From IMG/VR virus record IMGVR_UViG_3300027693_000002: a stretch of DNA of 38,082 bases; one strand, written 5' to 3'. The DNA comes from a virus. Shown piece by piece: positions 1-31,833 of the stretch (its first letter is position 1; every line of letters begins with the position of its first letter). The position numbers were made by a program, and so were the translations under genes. The notes under the pieces are model-generated. The model was given only the letters and a program-made list of their open reading frames with translations, had not been told where the DNA came from and made no database searches.

Positions 1-1064
1 GTCGGGGCTTTTGACTCAAGAGCGTGAGCTAAAGCCCGATAACAAAAACGTTTCTGACCTCGACATCCAGAGAGATCAAGGTCTTCAAGAACGAAGACCG
101 ATTCTGGATAAGCTAGAAGAAGCTCATTTGATACTCGTCCTGTGATACTCTTAGTAAGCCCAGAAAGCTTGGACTCTAGGCGGTCAAGCCTGGGTGAGTT
201 GTCCTTAAGATTCTGTCTCTGGCGGTTCGAGCGAACCGCCCTGACCTTGTTGTAGAGCTGGTTGAACTTTGGTTGAAGGTCAGCCCCAAACGTGTGTCCA
301 CTCGAAGTAGCCGCTACTACGTTCAGCCCAACGTCGACTCCTACTCGAGGTAACTCTGGCTCAGCTTCCAGAACGAGCCACTCCTTGATATCAACCGCTT
401 CAAAACGCCAACGGCCCTTTCGGTCTTTCCTCGCATGGATTCCCTTGGAAACATCGGAAGCTTTCCTCACATAAGGGTTACCAACCAATGGTAACCAGGC
501 AAGCTTACGCGAAACCAAGGTTGAGATCTTGAGCCAAAAATCAGCGTGGACAGTTTCTTCTGGATCTTCCAATGAGCAAGTGTTTTCCGACATCCTCATT
601 GGAATCCGATTGGACACGCTTGGGAAATTTCCCACTACTTCTGGGTCTGAGAGCCAAGTCCAATACAGATCGATAGCTTCTTGGGAGACAGTGTCCCTTG
701 GCTCATGAACCAGATACTTCTCTACTGTGTAGAGTTGCTTTCGGAAGTCCTCGGTGATTTCACCCCTCTTGAAAGCCAATCGAATGTGGGTCTTGAGCTT
801 CCGGACGTAGACTGATTTAGCTCAAGTACTCACGATCTGAATAGCGTGGTCTCGGGCGTTCTTCTCAATCTGAGATGTGAGCTTCTCAGCTCGTGGAAAG
901 AACTCTTGCTTCTTGGAACGAGGTAAAGTCAGCCTACGAGCTTCAAGCATCGTCTGGACGCAGATCCGAACGTAAGAGACGTATTCGACATGGAGGGCTT
1001 CAAGGGAGGCTAGTTTCCCTGGGTTACACTCGGGGTGCAGCATGAAGAACCGACTCTTCTTCAT
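1..1064 (-). mobile_element. tnpB: IS200/IS605-family TnpB-like (OrfB) RNA-guided nuclease gene. The 5' part is in the window and the 3' end runs off the window start. It is interrupted by a single in-frame TGA at 822-824.
   Basis: The minus-strand frame is open from 821 down to position 1; I checked every in-frame triplet and found no stop. It is in the same frame as the 80-aa ORF 822..1064 that ends with TGA. The translation contains the RuvC-I-like motif GVDVGLNVVAATSSGHTFGADL. It also contains the RuvC-II-like stretch ESVFVLEDLDLSG followed by ...YRALAHALESKAP, which is typical of TnpB/OrfB. No TnpA is adjacent. Confidence 0.7.
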
Positions 1065-4172: not shown

Positions 4173-4526
4173 AGTTACCCGATCATTTTCAACTTGACAA
4201 GAATTCCAATCGGATTTAGCATACCGGCCTCAGGTCATAATTCCGTAAAGTGGTAGATCTGATGGGTCCTTGAAAAGCAAGTCTATCGGGTTCACGGCAC
4301 GAAACAGCGCGTTCCGCGCACTTCCTTGCTGTGGTAAAAGACTTGAGGAAAATCAAGTTGACCAAACACCAAGAGGACTTGATCCTTTCGGGGAAAGTAG
4401 TTCCTAGATCACCTGGACGTTCCAGGACAAAATGGTCGAGGAATGTCGATATTCCTCGAAATTGGTGAATCGATGGATCGAAGGCTATGCCTAAGTTTAC
4501 TTAGGAAGTGTCCCGATCGTCGAATG

Positions 4527-5202: not shown

Positions 5203-5949
5203 TCATAACCCACCTACCCGTAGCACGAGGTTAACGTACTCCAAACCCCGTGGTAGATCCCGGTTCACCAAAACCTTCCGACGAGTGCACGTCGTGGGTG
5301 CCTTGGTCTTGGGGTTGAACCCAGTCCTCTCGAAGTCCTCCCAATAGAGACCGACACCATGCTTTTGCCAGGTAGCGAGCTTGTTGAAATTGATCCCATG
5401 CTGAAAGAGTAGTTCGTTCTTGGCCGAGAAACTCCGACCTTCAAGGACCTCCGTCGCCTGCTTGGCGTTCTTCCCAGCCTTTCTCAACGTCCAGTAACAC
5501 CAGGAGTTCAGACAACAGCGAAAGGCATCCGACTGCCTCCATCGGAAGTAATCGACCACGTCGTTCTCCAAGATCCCCACCCAGACCCGACCGTCAAAGT
5601 GACCAGGCTTGCCCAGCTCCAACGAAAAGGTCGACGACGCTATCCCCGCAGAGACCGACACAAGCTTCTCCACTTCGCGACCGAATAGATCCGTATCACG
5701 AGGCAGTAGAACCGAAATTTCGTCACTCTCCGTGAATGCATAGAGTCCACCTAACTCAATCAACAAAGCCTTCGCCGTCGCCACCATGCACTCGTGAAAC
5801 TTCACATCGAATGGATGCTCCATTCCTCGGGTCAGCTTCGTGAAGCTCCGCCCATCAACACGAACAATGGGATAGGCACCAGGTAAGACTTCCAGCGCAT
5901 GATAGCACTCAAGCCGTCGCATCCGAACATCAAGGTTGTCACTTTTCAT
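5203..5949 (-). CDS. Thg1-like protein (tRNA-His guanylyltransferase / 3'-5' nucleotide polymerase family)
   Basis: 248 aa. The motifs IVRVDGRSF, TESDEISVLL, FDGRVWV, RWRQSDAFRCCLNSWCYWTL and SAKNELLFQHGINFNK align, from memory, with conserved Thg1 blocks ([55 protein letters not shown]). Confidence 0.8.
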   Translation of the reverse strand: MKSDNLDVRMRRLECYHALEVLPGAYPIVRVDGRSFTKLTRGMEHPFDVKFHECMVATAKALLIELGGLYAFTESDEISVLLPRDTDLFGREVEKLVSVSAGIASSTFSLELGKPGHFDGRVWVGILENDVVDYFRWRQSDAFRCCLNSWCYWTLRKAGKNAKQATEVLEGRSFSAKNELLFQHGINFNKLATWQKHGVGLYWEDFERTGFNPKTKAPTTCTRRKVLVNRDLPRGLEYVNLVLRVGGL

Positions 5950-6131: not shown

Positions 6132-6569
6132 ATGAAAGTCACGAATCTCACCAATGCTCCGATCTACCTGAAGGACTTAAGACTCATTCGGCAGGGTCAA
6201 TCCGAGGCCCGGAGAGCTGAGGACCAGTACATTGGGGCGGGACGTAGTGTTTACCTGCCCGACACTTCAGAAGTCATTCGATCCGCTCAAAAAGGTGATC
6301 TCTATCAGTTCGAGAAGGTGGGTAAGCTAAGGCTCAACGAGATCCTCTCTCTAGCGGCCTTCCCGGGCCCAGGGAACTCAGCAACGATACACCATGACCT
6401 AGGGTATTACCCCAACGCAGCAGCTCTCAAAAAGGTTGTTACGGGTTCGGTAGTCACGTGGTTAACCTCTATAGGTGCCGTAGACATCATCCACAACGCT
6501 ACCTTCACAGAGACCACCTTCATCAATACAGTGGCCTTGCCTTTAGAGTTCTTAGTAAGGGTTGGATAA
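6132..6569 (+). CDS. hypothetical protein (145 aa), translationally coupled to the downstream tailspike-like gene
   Basis: Its 8-nt overlap with 6562..8526 suggests a two-gene structural module. Confidence 0.5.
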   Translation: MKVTNLTNAPIYLKDLRLIRQGQSEARRAEDQYIGAGRSVYLPDTSEVIRSAQKGDLYQFEKVGKLRLNEILSLAAFPGPGNSATIHHDLGYYPNAAALKKVVTGSVVTWLTSIGAVDIIHNATFTETTFINTVALPLEFLVRVG

Positions 6570-8526
6570 TATGACAGTTACACCACAAGAACTCGCTCGT
6601 GATGACTTCGGGACTATCATCCGAAAGCTCAACGTCCCCGGGGGACCCAACTCCTTTAGCCTTGGTGACGTCATCATCATCGATGACGTCAACGGGAATG
6701 ACTCAACGGGAGTGATCAACGGATTACCCTTCAAAACAGTTGAAGCCGCCATCGCCTACATCAATACGTATGGCTTCACGGAAGTGACTATGTGGCTCTT
6801 ACCGGGGCGGTATACTATCGCTGCCGGGTTCGTAATGCCCGCCACCTGCTCAATGCGTGGATTCAGCTTGCAAGTGTGCAGCATCACACTCACTACCTCT
6901 GTAAGCGCTACAATGATCACGATGGGGGAGAATTCTCGTATAGAGGATCTGACCCTGAACTTAACGTCAACATCAGATACGGCTAACCTAGTACTACTTG
7001 AGCTCCCGGGTACGACGTCAATCACATCGAAGATCAGAACTTGCGTTCTCAATATAGATAACGCCACAGTCTCGACGGGCAGTACCACCAACGTGTATGG
7101 CCTCTACGTGACAGGTACCGGTATCCTTGGGCCAGCAACGTTCAGCTTCAATCAAACTCGAAGTAGCACAATGAATCTCCGTTCCAACGGGAATGGCCAC
7201 AAGTACGGGATCTACTTGCCCCCGACAGGCTCCGGGTGTCAGATCTCCTGGAGAGACTCAAACATTTACGTTGCCGCCCCACGAGACTTGGCCTCAGCGG
7301 GTAACTACACTGGGGTTTGCTGTGAGAATAACAACAGCCAAATCCAGCTAAGAACAACCTCCATATCTGGAGTACCCTATCAATCACCAACTACTAACCC
7401 CTCGGTACGCCTGTTCTCACTTGTGAACACGACTCTATCAGGGATCCAAACCATTCAAGGAGTCACACTGGTCGCTGGTGACCGAATCCTCCTCGGAAGT
7501 CAAAACACAGAAACCCAGAACTCTGTTTGGATAGTTGCTAGTGAGGCTTGGACCCGTGCGGCAGATATGCCCCTTGGCAGCAATGCCAGTGGATCTTGGA
7601 TAGAGGTGCAAGAAGGAAGCTTCGCGTCCCAAAAGTGGCTCTGTGTTAGTTACCCAGCCACAGTTGGCACAGATCCTCTAACCTGGAGACACACCTATAG
7701 CGGGGTAGATCTCAAGTTGCCCGTGATGGCCAGGTATACAGGGGGATCCCCTACAGGATCTAGAGCAGCTCAAGGCTCCTACACGCCCGCCGAAGGAGAT
7801 CGCCTATTCTTGGATCAGGCCACAAGTGCAGTAAACAATGGTACTTGGACCTACAATTCGACTGGAGCCTGGACTCGGGCTGGGGATATGCCCGCAGGAA
7901 CAACTTCCTTCAATGCCTACATAACTGTGGAGGGTGGTACAGATGAAGGACACGCATTCATCTGCACTACCGTGGGTACTGTGGATACAGATGATCTAAC
8001 GTTTGTGCCCAAGTACAACGGATCGGATATCCTTCAACTCCTACCGCTCTCGGGTAACGTGCCCAATGGCATCAACGTCGGGCCTGGTGTTGACTTGGTT
8101 ACGAAAAGTACCAATGGCAAGCCTTTCTCAACATACACGAGACCAAATACTTTCGTGTATGGCTATCGAGGTAACCTGCCTAATGGTATCAGGTACCTAT
8201 GGCAAGGACTGCAGACCGCGTTGGACAGTACCCAGGTATTCTACCGCTTCCAGCAAGATACCATCGTGCAAGGGATCTCCATCGTAGTTAGGAACACAGA
8301 TTTAGGCACCACTGTGGTTAAGGCAACGGCACTCAAGTCCTTGAGTGGTATCGCCGGACAGGGGATCCACACTCCAGTGAGTGTGAGCATCACTAACGGG
8401 ATCACTATGGCAGAGAATTACAAATCTTCTATACTGTTCGAACGAGCCTCATTCCTCGCAGTACAACTAGAATCTAACTCACCCGTTAGCCCCGGAGACT
8501 TCACTGTCGAGATTGATGCCTACTGA
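6562..8526 (+). CDS. tailspike / tail-fiber-like receptor-binding protein, with an N-terminal pectate-lyase-type beta-helix signature and two ~60-aa C-terminal tandem repeats
   Basis: 654 aa, Ser/Thr/Gly/Asn-rich. The N-terminal pattern GDVIIIDD...PFKTVEAAIAYIN...GRYTI resembles the starts of beta-helix depolymerases. Internal repeats GDRxxL...AWTRAxDMPxG...GTDxLTW/F occur twice. Confidence 0.55.
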   Translation: MDNMTVTPQELARDDFGTIIRKLNVPGGPNSFSLGDVIIIDDVNGNDSTGVINGLPFKTVEAAIAYINTYGFTEVTMWLLPGRYTIAAGFVMPATCSMRGFSLQVCSITLTTSVSATMITMGENSRIEDLTLNLTSTSDTANLVLLELPGTTSITSKIRTCVLNIDNATVSTGSTTNVYGLYVTGTGILGPATFSFNQTRSSTMNLRSNGNGHKYGIYLPPTGSGCQISWRDSNIYVAAPRDLASAGNYTGVCCENNNSQIQLRTTSISGVPYQSPTTNPSVRLFSLVNTTLSGIQTIQGVTLVAGDRILLGSQNTETQNSVWIVASEAWTRAADMPLGSNASGSWIEVQEGSFASQKWLCVSYPATVGTDPLTWRHTYSGVDLKLPVMARYTGGSPTGSRAAQGSYTPAEGDRLFLDQATSAVNNGTWTYNSTGAWTRAGDMPAGTTSFNAYITVEGGTDEGHAFICTTVGTVDTDDLTFVPKYNGSDILQLLPLSGNVPNGINVGPGVDLVTKSTNGKPFSTYTRPNTFVYGYRGNLPNGIRYLWQGLQTALDSTQVFYRFQQDTIVQGISIVVRNTDLGTTVVKATALKSLSGIAGQGIHTPVSVSITNGITMAENYKSSILFERASFLAVQLESNSPVSPGDFTVEIDAY

Positions 8527-12968: not shown

Positions 12969-13065
12969 CACACAGTTTCCCTGCAGAACTGTGTGTTTTA
13001 CACAACCCCCAGTTGTGTTGTGAGGTTTCCTACACACATCCGACGATGCGCCTTCGGCGCATCGT
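12969..13065. other. cluster of inverted repeats and GC hairpins
   Basis: CACACAGTT...AACTGTGTG at 12969-12995 and ACACAAC...GTTGTGT at 13000-13018. A 10-bp stem hairpin with a tight loop at 13043-13065 has the core TGCGCCTTCGGCGCA. The same 15-mer recurs near 31366. Confidence 0.6.
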
Positions 13066-13224
13066 GATTTACTGTGAAAGTAGTAGGTGTCGGATAACCA
13101 CACCAGAACAGGCGCTTCGCGCAAGTGTAGGTAGGGTAGTCCTATAAGATATGAGGTAGTGTTTGTCATACGTCTATACCTATGTAGGCGAGGGTATGAT
13201 TAGCTATGGTAGGTACGAAAGATA

Positions 13225-13300
13225 AGGTAGCCTACACGTAAGTGACGAGCGCGCTCGAATCAATAGTAACGAGCGTGGTTCTTGCCTACGTGTAGTTGTA
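13225..13300. repeat. R1 inverted-repeat element, copy 1 (GCCTACACGTAAGT ... CGAATCAATAGTAACGA ... CTACGTGTAGT)
   Basis: 10-bp terminal inverted repeats, CTACACGTAG / CTACGTGTAG. Homologous copies lie at 18103-18178 and 27825-27900. Confidence 0.65.
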
Positions 13301-17803: not shown

Positions 17804-18102
17804 CCCTGGGGGAGGGTTAATGCGCCGTAGGGGGGAATGCCTTGGTCCAGTTCCGGATTTTGAGTTTGACGCTGACCTGTAAGATAGGTTGCCGGTAAGG
17901 TTACGAGCAGTGCATCAAGACTCGAGGGTGGTGGGGAGCCAGGGTCACTCTCGTTTATGACCAGAACAATGGGGGTGGCCTGGATAGTTAGTAGATTGCT
18001 TACAGGTAGGTAAGCTCTTGGCTCATTCCTATAGTTACCAGCGTATTGAGTAACTACATGTAAGCTAGTCCCTTGTTCGAGCTTATAAGCTCGAGCCTCT
18101 TG

Positions 18103-18178
18103 ATTGCCTACACGTAGTTTTAGAGCATGTTCGTAGCAATAGTAATGAGCCAATCATAAAACTACGTGTAGTTACATA
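18103..18178. repeat. R1 inverted-repeat element, copy 2
   Basis: GCCTACACGTAGT...CGTAGCAATAGTAATGAG...CTACGTGTAGT. Confidence 0.6.
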
Positions 18179-18404
18179 CTTTCTGGTTGAGAGTCCGCTT
18201 TTTGGTACATACTACGACTCATGTCATCAGTTGAGGGGAAAGTCGCACACTTTTTGAGAGCCGTAAGGCTCGGTTTGGTGAAAGACGTTCCACCGGATGC
18301 TGTCACATGTGAGTTCCATACAAAACTCACATGTGACAGCATCCGGGCTGCCACGTGTGGGGATAGGATTCTCGTAGAAAGGCAGGAACGCCGTCGAAGT
18401 TTGG

Positions 18405-18439
18405 TTGAGTTTGGCAAGACTGGCACGTAATACTAGGGC
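18405..18439 (+). promoter_or_regulatory. consensus leaderless promoter (TTGAGT-N14-CACGTAATA-N7-ATG)
   Basis: TTGAGT at 18405-18410, then ATG at 18440. Confidence 0.6.
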
Positions 18440-19815: not shown

Positions 19816-19850
19816 TTGAGTTCAGGATAGGCTCAAGCGTAATAGACGTG
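19816..19850 (+). promoter_or_regulatory. consensus promoter followed by a 22-nt SD-containing leader
   Basis: TTGAGT at 19816-19821 and GCGTAATA at 19837-19844. There is no ATG at the canonical spot. AGGAGA sits 8 nt before the ATG at 19865. Confidence 0.55.
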
Positions 19851-19864
19851 CAGGAGAAGAAACC

Positions 19865-20563
19865 ATGATACAGTATGTACGTCCAGGGAAGAAACTAACA
19901 CTATACTGCCAGTGTTACAGTTACTTTGGGTCGGGGATTGGGATCGTCCGGTTGACGTTGACCGGCGGGGCCACACGGGGGCCTTCTGTGGAGTCCGGAG
20001 ACAACGGGTTCTGCCGCTGGAAGTCCTGCGAGGTGACCCTGCAGGCAGGGTCTACTGCGCGCGCGGAAGAGTCGTACTATCCCGGTGGGGACAGCGACAT
20101 CACTTACGTCGCGGACCTGGAGAAGTGGCGGGAGAAGAGGCGGGCCCATTTGGCTCGACTGTTTCAAGATCGGAAGATCGAGAGGGCGTACGCCGAGCTT
20201 CATTCGGCTCGTAAGCTGGAGATTGAGACTCGCTTACGAGCTGCGATCCAGGCTGCCATCGAGCTGGAGGGGCAGGCCCGGGCGCGAGCTTCAGGGCGTA
20301 GTGGCGGTCGAGCCCGAAGGGGAGCCGTGGTTCTTCGAGCCCAAGCGGCAGACCAACGTCGACTTGCGGCGGCCCTAGCATCAACCTACTACGTGGAAGT
20401 GCTCGAGTGCTGTAACCGAGCGTGGTCGGTCGACCAAGGGCTAGCGTCCCGAGAGGTTCGATGGGAAGCTCGGAACAGTTTCCGACAAAGCCGAGGCGGG
20501 CTAGCATCCGCCAAAATGCCAGCGGGTTGTGAAGTGGCACTCAAGTGGGCGTTAGCTGAGTAA
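19865..20563 (+). CDS. hypothetical Arg/Ala-rich protein (232 aa)
   Basis: ORF with an SD. Confidence 0.5.
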   Translation: MIQYVRPGKKLTLYCQCYSYFGSGIGIVRLTLTGGATRGPSVESGDNGFCRWKSCEVTLQAGSTARAEESYYPGGDSDITYVADLEKWREKRRAHLARLFQDRKIERAYAELHSARKLEIETRLRAAIQAAIELEGQARARASGRSGGRARRGAVVLRAQAADQRRLAAALASTYYVEVLECCNRAWSVDQGLASREVRWEARNSFRQSRGGLASAKMPAGCEVALKWALAE

Positions 20564-21235: not shown

Positions 21236-21475
21236 ATGAGCAAGAAGCTATCCCCAGCCCAAGCCCGGGTCCTTCAGGAAGTCATCAAGGTTACTGACGA
21301 TGGATATCGAGCTTGGAGTTGTTTCCCGGAATACAAGCCTGCTCTCAAGCTCCTCGAGCTTGAGTATGTGTCCAAAAGTGAGACCTTGGGTAGCTACCGA
21401 ATCACTTTGGTCCCAACCGAGCTAGGTAGATCAGTGGCTTCTAAGTTAGCCACATCTAAATCCTTGACCACTTGA
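21236..21475 (+). CDS. family D small protein (79 aa)
   Basis: Paralogue of 18701. Its last codons run into the 380-nt repeat. Confidence 0.7.
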   Translation: MSKKLSPAQARVLQEVIKVTDDGYRAWSCFPEYKPALKLLELEYVSKSETLGSYRITLVPTELGRSVASKLATSKSLTT

Positions 21476-21897
21476 CCGTCCTGGGGTATCCTCCGGGGGT
21501 CGTAAGTTCTTCTTGCCCAGCGCCCGAATAGGCTTAGCGCCTTCCTTCTGGGGTCAGCCAGGTAAGAAACCTGAGGCCGCCTACTTCGGTGGGTCGTAAC
21601 AGGTGAACCGATAGACACCAGATGTAGATCCTATAGATGTAGATTCTATCCGATGTAGATACCATGCCTCAGCTAGGCCGAACCGGCCCTGCTAGGTCAA
21701 AGTAAGCTGACGATCTCTGTTCCCTGGAATGAGCCAATCCTTCCTCTTAGTAGGTAAACACAGGCTACGAGGGACGCCCGAGTCCGAAGCTAAACCGGCC
21801 CGCAGGAACGAAGTAGGACAAATAGCTCTCATTCTCAGCCTGAATCCCTTTGCTTTAGAGCAATTGTCTGGAAACGGGCTAAAGGTGTATTTGGGGG
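21461..21897. repeat. R2 large intergenic repeat, copy A (~437 nt)
   Basis: It aligns with 27946-28325. The blocks are near-identical (about 130 nt identical: GATACCATGCCTCAGCTAGGCCGAACCGGCCC...GAGTCCGA). Copy A carries an extra insert with 3 tandem copies of a GATGTAGAT-containing ~15-mer (21620-21665). No ORF is conserved between the two copies. Confidence 0.75.
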
Positions 21898-27724: not shown

Positions 27725-27900
27725 TATCCATGTAAGCAAATACGTGGTTCGTTACTATTGATACGAACAGTGCACTCGCTTACATGTAGTTTTTGCTCAC
27801 GTTCGTTACTATTGATACGAAAGCTAAGGTTGCCTACACGTAAGTATCAAGCACGTTCGAATCTATAGTAATGAACACGATTTTGGTCTACGTGTAGTAT
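27725..27900. repeat. R1 inverted-repeat element, copy 3, plus two extra direct copies of the 19-21-mer GTTCGTTACTATTGATACGAA
   Basis: 19-21-mers at 27748-27768 and 27802-27822 in one orientation, and CGAATCTATAGTAATGAAC at 27858-27875 inverted. Termini are GCCTACACGTAAGT / CTACGTGTAGT. CATGTAAGC...GCTTACATG flanks the first 19-21-mer. Confidence 0.65.
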
Positions 27901-27945: not shown

Positions 27946-28325
27946 CTCTTGACCACTTGACCGCCCTGAGGTATCCTCCGGGGGTCGTAAGTTCATCTTG
28001 CCCAGCACCCGAACAGGCCCAGAGCCTTCCTTCTGGGGTTAGCGAGGCAGAGTGAACCTCCTACGACACTCATCCTAGATGAAGATACCATGCCTCAGCT
28101 AGGCCGAACCGGCCCTGCTAGGTCAAAGTAAGCTGACGATCTCTGTTCCCTGGAATGAGCCAATCCTTCCTCTTAGTAGGTAAACACAGGCTACGAGGGA
28201 CGCCCGAGTCCGAGTGCTGAAACGACCTAAACGGAACCGAAGTAGGACAAGTAGCTCAAATCTCAGCCTGAATCCCTTTGCTTTCGGAGCAATTGATTGG
28301 AAACGGGCTAAAAGTGCATTTACTT
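27946..28325. repeat. R2 large intergenic repeat, copy B (~380 nt)
   Basis: See copy A. It is preceded by two tandem copies of ACCACTTGACCGCCCTGA(A)GG (27905-27965). Confidence 0.75.
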
Positions 28326-28702: not shown

Positions 28703-28900
28703 ATGTCACCGATATCTCGTCAGGAGAAGAGCCTATTGGAGAGGGAGAGTCCTGGGGATCCTGCTGGGGATCTTCGGGAGAGGGACCGGCTCAGGAAGCA
28801 GCATGAGCGGGCACAGGATCCGGACAACATGAGGCTAATCCAAGCGTTACGTGAGTTTCTAGGGCTACAACCGCTACCTGGGATCCCAGAAAGAAAGTGA
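28703..28900 (+). CDS. hypothetical charged protein (65 aa)
   Basis: It is preceded by TTGAGT plus the GGAAACGGGCTAAAGGTGTATTTGGGGG element, but has no GCGTAATA box. Confidence 0.4.
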   Translation: MSPISRQEKSLLERESPGDPAGDLRERDRLRKQHERAQDPDNMRLIQALREFLGLQPLPGIPERK

Positions 28901-28909
28901 AGAACCTGG

Positions 28910-28943
28910 TTGAGGGTCCACCTCCTCGCGCGTAATAATAGGC
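28910..28943 (+). promoter_or_regulatory. consensus promoter with no ORF at the canonical position (ACG replaces ATG); it feeds a long hairpin
   Basis: TTGAGG (28910-28915), 14-nt spacer, GCGTAATA (28930-28937), ataggc, then ACG. Confidence 0.55.
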
Positions 28944-28944
28944 A

Positions 28945-29039
28945 CGAAGGTCAGAAGCTAAACCCCTCCTTGACTAGCTGTAGTGGGGTCCTTGACTAGC
29001 TGTAGTGGTTAGTGGGAGGGGTTTAGTTCCTGACCTTCG
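28945..29039 (+). ncRNA. 95-nt hairpin leader / ncRNA candidate. The ~25-bp stem has a 4-nt internal mismatch. The 45-nt loop holds two tandem copies of CCTTGACTAGCTGTAGTGG.
   Basis: The 5' arm CGAAGGTCAGAAGCTAAACCCCTCC (28945-28969) pairs with GGAGGGGTTTAGTTCCTGACCTTCG (29015-29039). The predicted transcription start of the upstream promoter is at about 28944. Confidence 0.45.
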
Positions 29040-29050
29040 TAGTCGGAACC

Positions 29051-29407
29051 GTGGGAGACATCGAAGTGAAGTTCATCGAGAAAACGACGTTACGGAATTG
29101 CGGCCCCGTTGATCAAGAGGAGGATTCGCCGGTGCACGGATCCCTTCTCGTGGGAGAAGAGTGTGTCGGAACCTACGAAGACCGACGGTCTTCGTGCGGG
29201 TATGACTTCGTTGAGGTTTTCCCCGCGTACCATCGTGGGGCGAAAGCGTGGCTGCTCACGGCTACGTGGTCCCCTGCTCGGGGGTACTCGGCAAGCGGGG
29301 TCCAGGATGCGGTGGTCCCCTTCGAGGAGGGGGTTCGAATTCTGCTCACTCATGGGGCATACGCGCATCTTTGGAAGTCAACTGGATTGGAGTACTTGGT
29401 GAAGTGA
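29051..29407 (+). CDS. hypothetical protein (118 aa), GTG start, 11 nt after the hairpin
   Basis: ORF. Its TGA stop overlaps the GTG start of the next gene (GTGA). Confidence 0.4.
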   Translation: MGDIEVKFIEKTTLRNCGPVDQEEDSPVHGSLLVGEECVGTYEDRRSSCGYDFVEVFPAYHRGAKAWLLTATWSPARGYSASGVQDAVVPFEEGVRILLTHGAYAHLWKSTGLEYLVK

Positions 29408-31155: not shown

Positions 31156-31616
31156 CTTTGATGTTCACTTCCTGCTTCAACGAATCATAACTCGTAGTCC
31201 GAAGTTTCCCTCGTTCCGCCGTTAGAGGGTTCTCCACAGGCTTTCAGAGATCATAGATCTCCACGTTTCCCCTAAACTATGGGTACGTTAAACCTACGTA
31301 AAGTTGGTTCTTTTCTTGATTCCTCAAGTCTTTTACCGCAACAAGGACAACGACATTGCGCCTTCGGCGCAAGTCTTTCGTGTTGCGAACCACTTAGACT
31401 TGCTTTTCAAGGATCATCTCAGGTCTTCCCTTGGTTTTCGGGTTTAGTTGCCTGAGTCCACGAACCTTGATTCAGTCCTGAGAAAATGTCAAGCTAATCT
31501 GGTTTGATCAACTTTGATCAACTTTTCTTTCAGCTGCTCCAACCCCCAATACGGTCCGCCCTCTTGGAGGGACCGCTCCATTGGAGCAGGAAAGTGACCC
31601 GGCACTAAGAAAGACG

Positions 31617-31650
31617 TTGAGTCCATCCAAGCTCATGCGTAATACTGGCC
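31617..31650 (+). promoter_or_regulatory. consensus promoter driving a decayed gene copy
   Basis: TTGAGT (31617-31622), 14-nt spacer, GCGTAATA (31637-31644), then ATG at 31651. Confidence 0.55.
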
Positions 31651-31662
31651 ATGACCGAATGA
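31651..31662 (+). pseudogene. remnant of the 27453 gene's 5' end (ATGaCCGAATGAgg versus ATGCCGAATGAAG), frameshifted by a 1-nt insertion so that a stop follows after 3 codons
   Basis: Direct comparison of the two promoter-plus-start regions. Confidence 0.45.
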
Positions 31663-31744
31663 GGCTCCTGTAACGTAAGAGGTATATTCCTCAGAGGGAG
31701 CGTACCCGACCAGCGGACGATGTCTCAGATGCAATGTCGGGTGA

Positions 31745-31769
31745 TAGGGTTCGATTCCCTAGGGGAGTC
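31745..31769 (+). other. tRNA-like T-arm plus 3' acceptor fragment (TAGGG-TTCGATT-CCCTA-GGGGAGT-C)
   Basis: A canonical T-loop (TTCGATT) with a 5-bp stem. A possible 5' acceptor partner, ATTCCTC, lies at 31686-31692. I could not fold a convincing D arm or anticodon arm, so this is not called a tRNA. Confidence 0.2.
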
Positions 31770-31833
31770 TCAAATGGTCTACTGGTCAGGACTTCTAACC
31801 TAAGTACCACAACAACAAACCTGACTAGTGCAC

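Follow-up and report, generated by a model that had tools for sequence, protein, structure and literature searches.

A promoter-fused hairpin with tandem loop repeats as candidate 5' leader of a small operon in a metagenomic phage

The virus record IMGVR_UViG_3300027693_000002 is a metagenomic phage fragment of 38,082 nucleotides (nt), the whole of which was analysed and is called here the window; pieces identical to it are present in freshwater assemblies from JGI and Logan, the samples of this type being JGI 3300009146, 3300009085, 3300009168, 3300027675 and SRR5468422. It codes for a Thg1-like protein (5203-5949, - strand) and a structural protein (6562-8526), and most of its remaining open reading frames (ORFs) had no family match in Pfam or PHROGs, nor had the genes beside the hairpin described below. 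Starting at ~13 kb, there are 20 + strand copies of a bipartite promoter-like motif of sigma-70-like type, GGTTGAG-N15/16-GCGTAATA, which we refer to as the array promoter. Most copies are directly fused to the start codon of a gene. Behind one of them (28909-28937, the 28910 promoter hereafter) a long hairpin stands in the place of the gene start, which raises the question of what role such a structure might have at the very beginning of a phage transcript. We favour, with a probability of roughly 0.45, the explanation that it is a cis-acting 5' leader hairpin of the operon formed by the two following genes (gene 1 and gene 2), which would serve 5'-end protection and/or processing by ribonuclease III (RNase III) and whose loop repeats would be a recognition site. 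The stem most likely acts in cis on the mRNA.

The 28910 promoter and its hairpin

Seventeen of the 20 array promoter copies are followed by the ATG of a real ORF (58-211 amino acids, aa), whose distance from TAATA is 6 nt in 14 copies and 7 nt in 3, mostly in the context CATG. Because this register is the one that leaderless mRNAs need, we infer that transcription starts on the A of the ATG and that the 17 ATG-fused copies give rise to leaderless mRNAs. The same consensus, also fused to ATG codons, was found in the related phage contig L004 and in the more distant contigs L006 and L011. The 28910 promoter matches it exactly, with a 15-nt spacer, and its -35 and -10 blocks are the same in the window and in L004 while 5 of the 15 spacer bases have changed, which bears out the claim of an earlier note on this DNA that it is a genuine member of the array. 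What it lacks is the ORF-opening ATG 6-7 nt after TAATA that characterizes the family: the ATG register is occupied by A28944 of an ACG (ATC in L004), and the frame opened by this ACG meets a stop after 5 codons. The earlier note had presented this ACG as the sole departure from ATG. The ACG is indeed there, but two other copies are no simple ATG fusions either. The copy at 19816 (19816-19867) has a 20-nt leader with a Shine-Dalgarno (SD) sequence, AGGAGAA, starting at ~+8, no hairpin and then a 232-aa gene. The copy at 31617 has an ATG with only 3 codons, followed by a conserved non-coding RNA (ncRNA), which it drives. The promoter and the hairpin comprise the following features:

28909-28915, + strand: -35-like block GGTTGAG, common to the 20 + strand copies and unchanged in L004 while the spacer drifted
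28930-28937, + strand: -10-like block GCGTAATA, unchanged in L004 and with the same consensus in L006 and L011
28944, + strand: predicted transcription start, the A of ACG, at the position where 14 other copies have the A of their leaderless ATG
28944-28969, + strand: left (5') arm of the hairpin, 0/26 substitutions compared with L004, with a 1-nt insertion at the 5' edge
28968-28986, + strand: loop repeat 1, CCTTGACTAGCTGTAGTGG, which in L004 reads CCTTGAC-ACCTGTAGTGG
28990-29008, + strand: loop repeat 2, CCTTGACTAGCTGTAGTGG, identical in L004
29015-29040, + strand: right (3') arm of the hairpin, which opposes the left arm with one G·U and one A·C; in L004 this stretch pairs entirely in the Watson-Crick manner

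The inverted repeat (28944-28969 / 29015-29040), with its 26-nt arms and the 45 nt between them, is the longest local inverted repeat of the window and begins 44 nt past the stop codon of an upstream gene (28703-28900, 65 aa). A28944 is both the predicted start base and the base at which the stem begins. In L004 the stem would start at +3, and both versions would stay within the maximum of ~2-4 unpaired nt that defines a 5'-terminal stabilising stem-loop. The GGC directly upstream of A28944 can also pair, so that a start 1-3 nt earlier would still give a paired 5' end. The element had been described as a perfect-stem hairpin of 95 nt; it is 97 nt long and not quite perfect, with 24 of its 26 pairs of the Watson-Crick type, one G·U pair (G28957·U29027) and one A·C mismatch (A28955·C29029). 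The predicted stem consists of 11 bp, a 1x1 mismatch and 14 bp in the window, and of at least 24 continuous bp in L004, which places it in the range of the ~20 bp or more of near-continuous double-stranded RNA that mark an RNase III substrate. The + strand folds as RNA with -59.0 kcal/mol (z = -8.3) and the - strand with -47.1 kcal/mol, the corresponding values in L004 being -60.4 and -48.7 kcal/mol, and all four folds have z between -7 and -9. We rejected the difference between the strands as proof of a function at the RNA level, since the additional stability of the + strand comes from G·U pairing in a G/U-rich loop that folds no better than shuffled sequences (z = -0.8). The pattern of wobbles and mismatches in the stem is nearly symmetric between the two strands.

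The loop contains two tandem repeats, as had been noticed before: they are exact 19-nt copies in direct orientation, with a period of 22 nt, which lie at +25 to +65 and show a weak internal dyad symmetry (ACTAGC/TGTAGT, 4/6). The accompanying suggestion that the repeat might recur elsewhere as a target site found no support. At <=3 mismatches, the window has no further copy of CCTTGACTAGCTGTAGTGG (0.01 expected by chance), and the best candidate for an antisense target in these 38 kb reached 16 of 19 pairs, G·U included, which equals the null median of 16. A TGACTAG motif shared with position 31822 is not enriched (3 seen against ~2.3 expected, an estimate from window length). Neither Rfam 15 (at the gathering threshold and at E <= 5) nor ARAGORN (tRNA and tmRNA) gave anything overlapping 28944-29040. 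A DNA similarity search against 50,697 phage records gave no match, and neither did scans with exact patterns and protein seeds of viral, metagenome and genome collections, where the repeat was not found. The sequence of the hairpin is new in this sense, having no match in Rfam or in the collections searched.

One diverged version of the hairpin was available for comparison, that of L004, which is the same as L005 in this region and whose type belongs to the samples 3300035675 and ERZ27227586. Both contigs retain the promoter and the hairpin at 93% identity, the hairpin differing from that of the window by 5 substitutions and 2 indels in 97 nt. The changes are unevenly distributed, with 0/26 substitutions in the left arm, 1/44 in the loop and 4/26 differences in the right arm. 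Within the loop, repeat 1 differs (TAGC in the window, -ACC in L004) and repeat 2 and the 3' part are identical; at the positions of the window's G·U and A·C, the L004 stem has Watson-Crick pairs. For comparison, synonymous differences amount to 8.2/44 in the upstream 65-aa gene and 32.5/97.5 in gene 2 (19-33%); the hairpin is more conserved than these sites (Fisher test, p = 0.025 when compared with the upstream gene only and 2e-6 with the two genes together). L004 has moreover lost ~270 bp of gene 1 by a deletion that starts right after the stem, without loss of pairing at the junction so formed (CGAAGG/CCTTTG). That the hairpin has changed less than synonymous sites and has kept its pairing after the deletion of gene 1 argues for selection on the element, including the sequence of its loop.

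These properties fit the proposal of a dedicated structured leader or small RNA made in the earlier note: the stem begins on the predicted start base, no U-tract follows, and the hairpin is conserved above synonymous sites. For a leader, we propose the following scenario. Genes 1 and 2 would form a small early operon, read by the same RNA polymerase holoenzyme as the other 19 promoter copies. Transcription would start at A28944 or within 2 nt of it, and the nascent RNA, with a leader of ~120 nt, would fold at once into the 97-nt hairpin, leaving no free 5' end. The stem would thereby shield the mRNA from 5'-end-dependent decay, a task that in the other transcripts would fall to a ribosome sitting on the 5'-terminal AUG or, for the 19816 copy, on the SD at +8. 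That the inverted repeat starts 0-2 nt from the predicted start in both genomes is what 5'-end protection requires, and it is the hardest point for any reading at the DNA level. According to the references listed in PMC3997798 (Emory 1992; Bouvet and Belasco 1992; Bricker 1999; Hambraeus 2002), 5'-terminal stem-loops stabilise mRNA. As the stem is long enough, it is also a possible substrate of RNase III, whose cleavage might yield the mature transcript or set the stem-loop free. The loop repeats probably serve as a site that is recognised by its sequence, since their sequence is conserved although a pure stabiliser would not need it. Their ligand is possibly the LexA-like protein encoded by gene 2 of the same operon, which might autoregulate by binding either DNA or RNA.

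The two downstream genes

Downstream of the hairpin, we distinguished three further features:

29053-29058, + strand: SD-like GGGAGA of gene 1, read from the sequence and resembling the AGGAGA before the homologue in contig L010
29066-29407, + strand: gene 1, 113 aa, GTG start, 77% identical to the protein P0006 from the first residues and absent from L004
29404-29802, + strand: gene 2, 132 aa, GTG start overlapping the stop of gene 1 (GTGA), with a predicted LexA-like winged-helix N-terminal domain and a helical C-terminal part, 73% identical in L004

The start of gene 1 had been placed at a GTG at 29051, 11 nt after the hairpin. The homologue P0006, encoded in L010, begins with MKFIE directly after an AGGAGA SD, and the N-terminal homology makes the GTG at 29066, 25 nt past the stem, the most likely start instead. 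L010 carries neither the array promoter nor the hairpin, which marks gene 1 as portable and as bringing along a ribosome-binding site of its own. Its AlphaFold2 (AF2) model was unusable, with a predicted local distance difference test (pLDDT) score of 44.

The AF2 model of gene 2 (pLDDT 70) shows a helix-strand-helix-hairpin domain at the N terminus and helices in the C-terminal part. For this model, Foldseek returned only weak matches, with E = 0.03 or worse, to PadR, MarR and CtsR regulators and to ribosomal protein S8. The family is small, with 13 relatives in a full scan of 1.84 billion protein representatives. A profile built from 10 of these relatives aligned with 92% hhalign probability, over 52 columns, to the N-terminal DNA-binding domain of E. 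coli LexA, with an 11-residue gap in the helix-turn-helix segment. The Pfam family LexA_DNA_bind gave weak matches in 4 of 10 members, with a score of E = 0.029 that lies below the cut-off. Between the window and L004, the region of the putative recognition helix (TAKALERKGL) shows no change, and no member showed similarity to replication initiators. Gene 2 thus probably encodes a DNA-binding protein; the label of a protein like a winged helix-turn-helix, given in the earlier note, has no more than moderate support (92% in hhalign to LexA, best Foldseek E-value 0.03).

Competing explanations

Several observations weigh against a cis-acting leader. Both the start site and the RNA itself are deduced from sequence. 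Only two sequence variants could be compared, and they contain no compensatory double change, the differences in the stem being two wobbles and one mismatch; in addition, gene conversion between the arms could keep them complementary without selection. For both reasons, the comparison with L004 is no proof of an RNA structure. The right arm differs between the two genomes at close to the local synonymous rate, and pairing within the loop is no better than in shuffled sequences (z = -0.8). At 24-26 bp, the stem is far longer than 5'-end protection requires, and the two sub-mechanisms pull in opposite directions, as cleavage by RNase III would remove the protection. The other leadered copy, 19816, has no hairpin, and long perfect inverted repeats recur in the phage group (28 and 40 bp in L006), which could reflect a mutational tendency. 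Finally, neither gene family is regularly accompanied by the hairpin: it is missing from the gene 1 homologue in L010, from the five or six gene 2 paralogues in L004, from L011, where the array promoter is followed by a leaderless 88-aa gene and a coupled gene 2 homologue, and from L012, with a plain SD-led gene 2 homologue.

The loop repeats might instead act at the DNA level. The two 19-bp direct repeats, 22 bp apart and hence spaced by two helical turns, might bind the gene 2 protein as a duplex and repress or roadblock their own promoter, the inverted repeat being incidental or made for another protein. We consider this operator unlikely, although with a real chance, as it would account for a motif unique in the window, as expected for a private operator, and for a loop sequence conserved beyond the needs of pairing. 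Gene 2 lies downstream of the repeats in both genomes, with a gap of only 75 nt in L004, and the properties of its product, namely the 92% hhalign alignment with LexA, the weak LexA_DNA_bind matches in 4/10 members, the Foldseek matches to PadR, MarR and CtsR (E = 0.03-0.06) and the invariant TAKALERKGL, agree with a regulator. However, an operator leaves unexplained why a 26-bp inverted repeat should start exactly at the start base. The repeats are moreover direct, with weak dyad symmetry, whereas LexA, PadR and MarR dimers usually bind palindromes; repeat 1 differs at 3/19 positions in L004; no such repeats lie upstream of the 5-6 L004 paralogues of gene 2 or of its L011 and L012 homologues; and the fold has little structural backing (pLDDT 70, best E-value 0.03). 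A stand-alone early ncRNA seems to us somewhat more unlikely still. The 97-nt hairpin, or its repeat-bearing top excised by RNase III, would then accumulate and act in trans as a decoy or sponge for a protein, or on a target of host or phage outside the window, the downstream genes being expressed by read-through. There is precedent for it in the phage group, where at least two other ncRNAs are made from the same type of promoter (31651 in the window, which is cloverleaf-like and covarying, and 9138 in L004). The conserved loop and the persistence of the hairpin in L004 despite the loss of the adjacent gene are also compatible with it, and so stable a hairpin would be expected to resist 3' exonucleases and could survive processed. 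Against it speak the lack of a terminator or any other 3'-end signal at the hairpin, of a complementary target in the 38-kb window (where the best candidate only equals the null median) and of an Rfam family match, and the failure to find the repeat in viral, metagenome and genome collections. We rejected an antisense RNA of the P1 c4 / P4 CI type on the same 16/19 result, as the window has no complementary block. In a broader version, to which we would give a slightly smaller chance, the hairpin would belong with the 31651 cloverleaf-like RNA and a terminated small RNA of L004 to a set of early promoter-driven ncRNAs of an undescribed phage lineage with leaderless mRNAs. Its stem would be a processing or stability stalk and its loop a trans decoy or sponge for a nucleic-acid-binding protein of host or phage (for example, an anti-defence or takeover RNA), and it would be no cis leader.

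It is quite doubtful that the hairpin is a mere by-product of evolution, a scar of inverted duplication or recombination left without function when the SD-bearing gene 1 was inserted between the array promoter and gene 2. The mobility of gene 1, with its 77% homologue and own SD in the unrelated context of L010, and the arrangement in L011 (promoter, leaderless gene, coupled gene 2 homologue), presumably the older layout, would suit such a history, as would the lack of compensatory changes and the recurrence of long perfect inverted repeats in L006. A functionless scar is nonetheless difficult to reconcile with a hairpin that, loop included, is 3-4x more conserved than synonymous sites, that kept its pairing after the deletion of gene 1 in L004, and that is present as a single copy with no target-site duplication. 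A miniature inverted-repeat transposable element or similar mobile inverted repeat was likewise rejected, given the single copy in the window and loci and the flanks, GGC and AGT, which are not duplicated. The earlier note had named as its refuting case that the hairpin be simply the terminator of the upstream gene (28703-28900). A very stable, GC-containing hairpin 44 nt past a stop codon might look like one, or like an attenuator of the promoter's own transcript, but this is very improbable: the stem is not followed by a U-tract (AGUCGGAACC / AGTCGGAACC in the window, GCCCCUUCGA / GCCCCTTCGA in L004), and hence does not terminate the upstream gene, it lies downstream of the next promoter, its 45-nt loop contrasts with the short loops (3-8 nt) of intrinsic terminators, and the terminator scan made no call on it, whereas canonical U-tract terminators are used elsewhere in the phage group. 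The least probable of all is a transcription-activated replication origin, another suggestion of that note, with the repeats as iterons. Two direct repeats with a 22-bp period near a strong promoter and the gene of a putative DNA-binding protein could evoke one; yet iteron origins have three or more repeats, the surroundings (GC ~0.54-0.57) offer no AT-rich unwinding region, the GC skew does not turn here (its minimum lies near 13,000, where the strands switch), and the gene 2 family is small (13 representatives), multi-copy and without similarity to initiators.

If the leader explanation that we favour holds, a single promoter design would carry three kinds of 5'-end cover, namely a leaderless AUG (17 copies), an SD at +8 (19816) and a terminal hairpin (28910), and would offer a natural experiment on 5'-end-dependent decay in a host favouring leaderless translation. 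The hairpin would also mark the spot at which a portable SD-bearing gene came to lie behind a promoter that elsewhere leads directly into leaderless genes. Should the loop repeats bind the gene 2 protein, they would provide a first handle on a small phage-restricted family (13 representatives in 1.84 billion proteins). For now, the practical value is modest.

Other elements of the phage group and known systems

The array promoter also precedes other non-coding elements. A ~105-nt cloverleaf-like RNA follows it in the window (31617-31780, + strand), in L004 (10475-10640) and in L006 (5988-6150). It has an acceptor-like stem, two arms and a T-arm, UAGGG-UUCGAUU-CCCUA, and is conserved in the three contigs with 9 covarying pairs; neither ARAGORN nor Rfam made a call on it. 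The Thg1-like enzyme encoded in the same phage (5203-5949, - strand) belongs to a type that repairs tRNA 5' ends, and this RNA may be more interesting than the hairpin. In L004 (9110-9275), another array promoter drives a ~130-nt non-coding stretch with a canonical terminator at its end (GGGCCCCGGG...CCCGGGGCCCTTTGGTTTTT). The core of this stretch, CTTAGCGCG.CTGGCT...ACCCGGT.TTGTCTGGG.ATTGAG, recurs in L006 (6368-6531) inside a 40-bp perfect inverted repeat and has no copy in the window. Directly 3' of the tRNA-like RNA, L006 carries a further hairpin (6153-6293; fold z = -11), in which a stem of 28 bp encloses three small hairpins arranged as a multiloop; one of the three resembles a T-arm (GGGGUUCGAACCCC). 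We tried it as a homologue of the hairpin described here, which it resembles by eye (~70% in the arms, with apparent compensatory changes), and rejected it because the similarity is at the level of BLAST noise (E = 30-50) and because the promoter that precedes it is homologous to the one at 31617 and not to the 28910 promoter.

The window has further repeats. A 23-bp perfect palindrome with an 8-nt loop (18293-18346) lies within a small Cys-rich ORF (~18235-18437) that resembles by eye an ORF starting at 6717 in L006 (shared FL.AVRLGLV.DVPP). An 83-nt intergenic repeat, each copy of which forms a hairpin (CTACACGTA...TACGTGTAG), occurs at 13214-13296, 18090-18172 and 27816-27898, with related inverted copies at 27729-27820. 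A ~430-bp non-coding module is duplicated at 21463-21892 and 27948-28321, one 136-nt block being 99% identical; it ends in GGAAACGGGCTAAAGGTGTATTTGG, also found before the 65-aa gene in the window, L004 and L006, an element that could represent another class of promoter or a signal for translation. At the left end, positions 1-575 (- strand) are 77% identical to a TnpB-like gene (Cas12f1-like_TNB) that in L006 (1957-3534) stands beside a MerR-resolvase gene, and this looks like an IS607-type element inside these phages. The segment 4140-4674 equals L004 1783-2316 at 98% in inverted orientation, which suggests a mobile or shuffled module. Long-range inverted repeats join 4267-4350 to 31320-31413, and a sub-threshold match to RAGATH-18 (27.8 bits, E = 0.04) lies at 31169-31240 (- strand).

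Among known systems, autoregulated repressors of the LexA, PadR and MarR types resemble this locus in that a LexA-like gene lies just downstream of a unique repeated motif beside its own promoter. They differ from it in the orientation and position of the repeats, which here are direct instead of palindromic and lie at +25 to +65 instead of over the -35/-10 blocks, and the gene 2 domain, a putative binder, is short of ~11 residues of the canonical helix-turn-helix segment. The c4 RNAs of phages P1 and P7 and the CI RNA of P4 pair with complementary blocks further down their own transcript. They are also structured RNAs made from the 5' leader of an early operon and containing repeated blocks; in contrast, the window contains no complement of the loop repeat.

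RNase III hairpins of early phage transcripts are another known kind. The T7 sites have an internal loop between two ~10-bp stems and recur between most early genes. The hairpin described here shares with T7 R0.3-R1.3, the lambda N leader and SP82 early RNA a long near-perfect double-stranded RNA stem on an early phage transcript, placed between cistrons and without a terminator tail, but unlike the T7 sites it would be a single site at the very 5' end. This last feature is found in the 5'-stabilised leaders, such as that of T7 phi10 with its 5'-terminal stabilising stem-loop. As in phi10, in ompA and papA of E. coli and in aprE of B. subtilis, the hairpin lies 0-2 nt from the predicted 5' end on the sense strand, before an SD-led gene, and is no terminator. 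Its stem is longer than theirs (26 bp here, typically 5-12 bp there), its large loop carries conserved tandem repeats, and the other early mRNAs of this phage appear to be leaderless. For ompA, papA and aprE, this comparison rests on the references listed in PMC3997798. The kind of element, a promoter-proximal 5' leader hairpin of a phage early transcript, is already known, and what is unusual is its exact fusion to a promoter that otherwise serves leaderless genes, together with a 26-bp stem and a conserved tandem-repeat loop.

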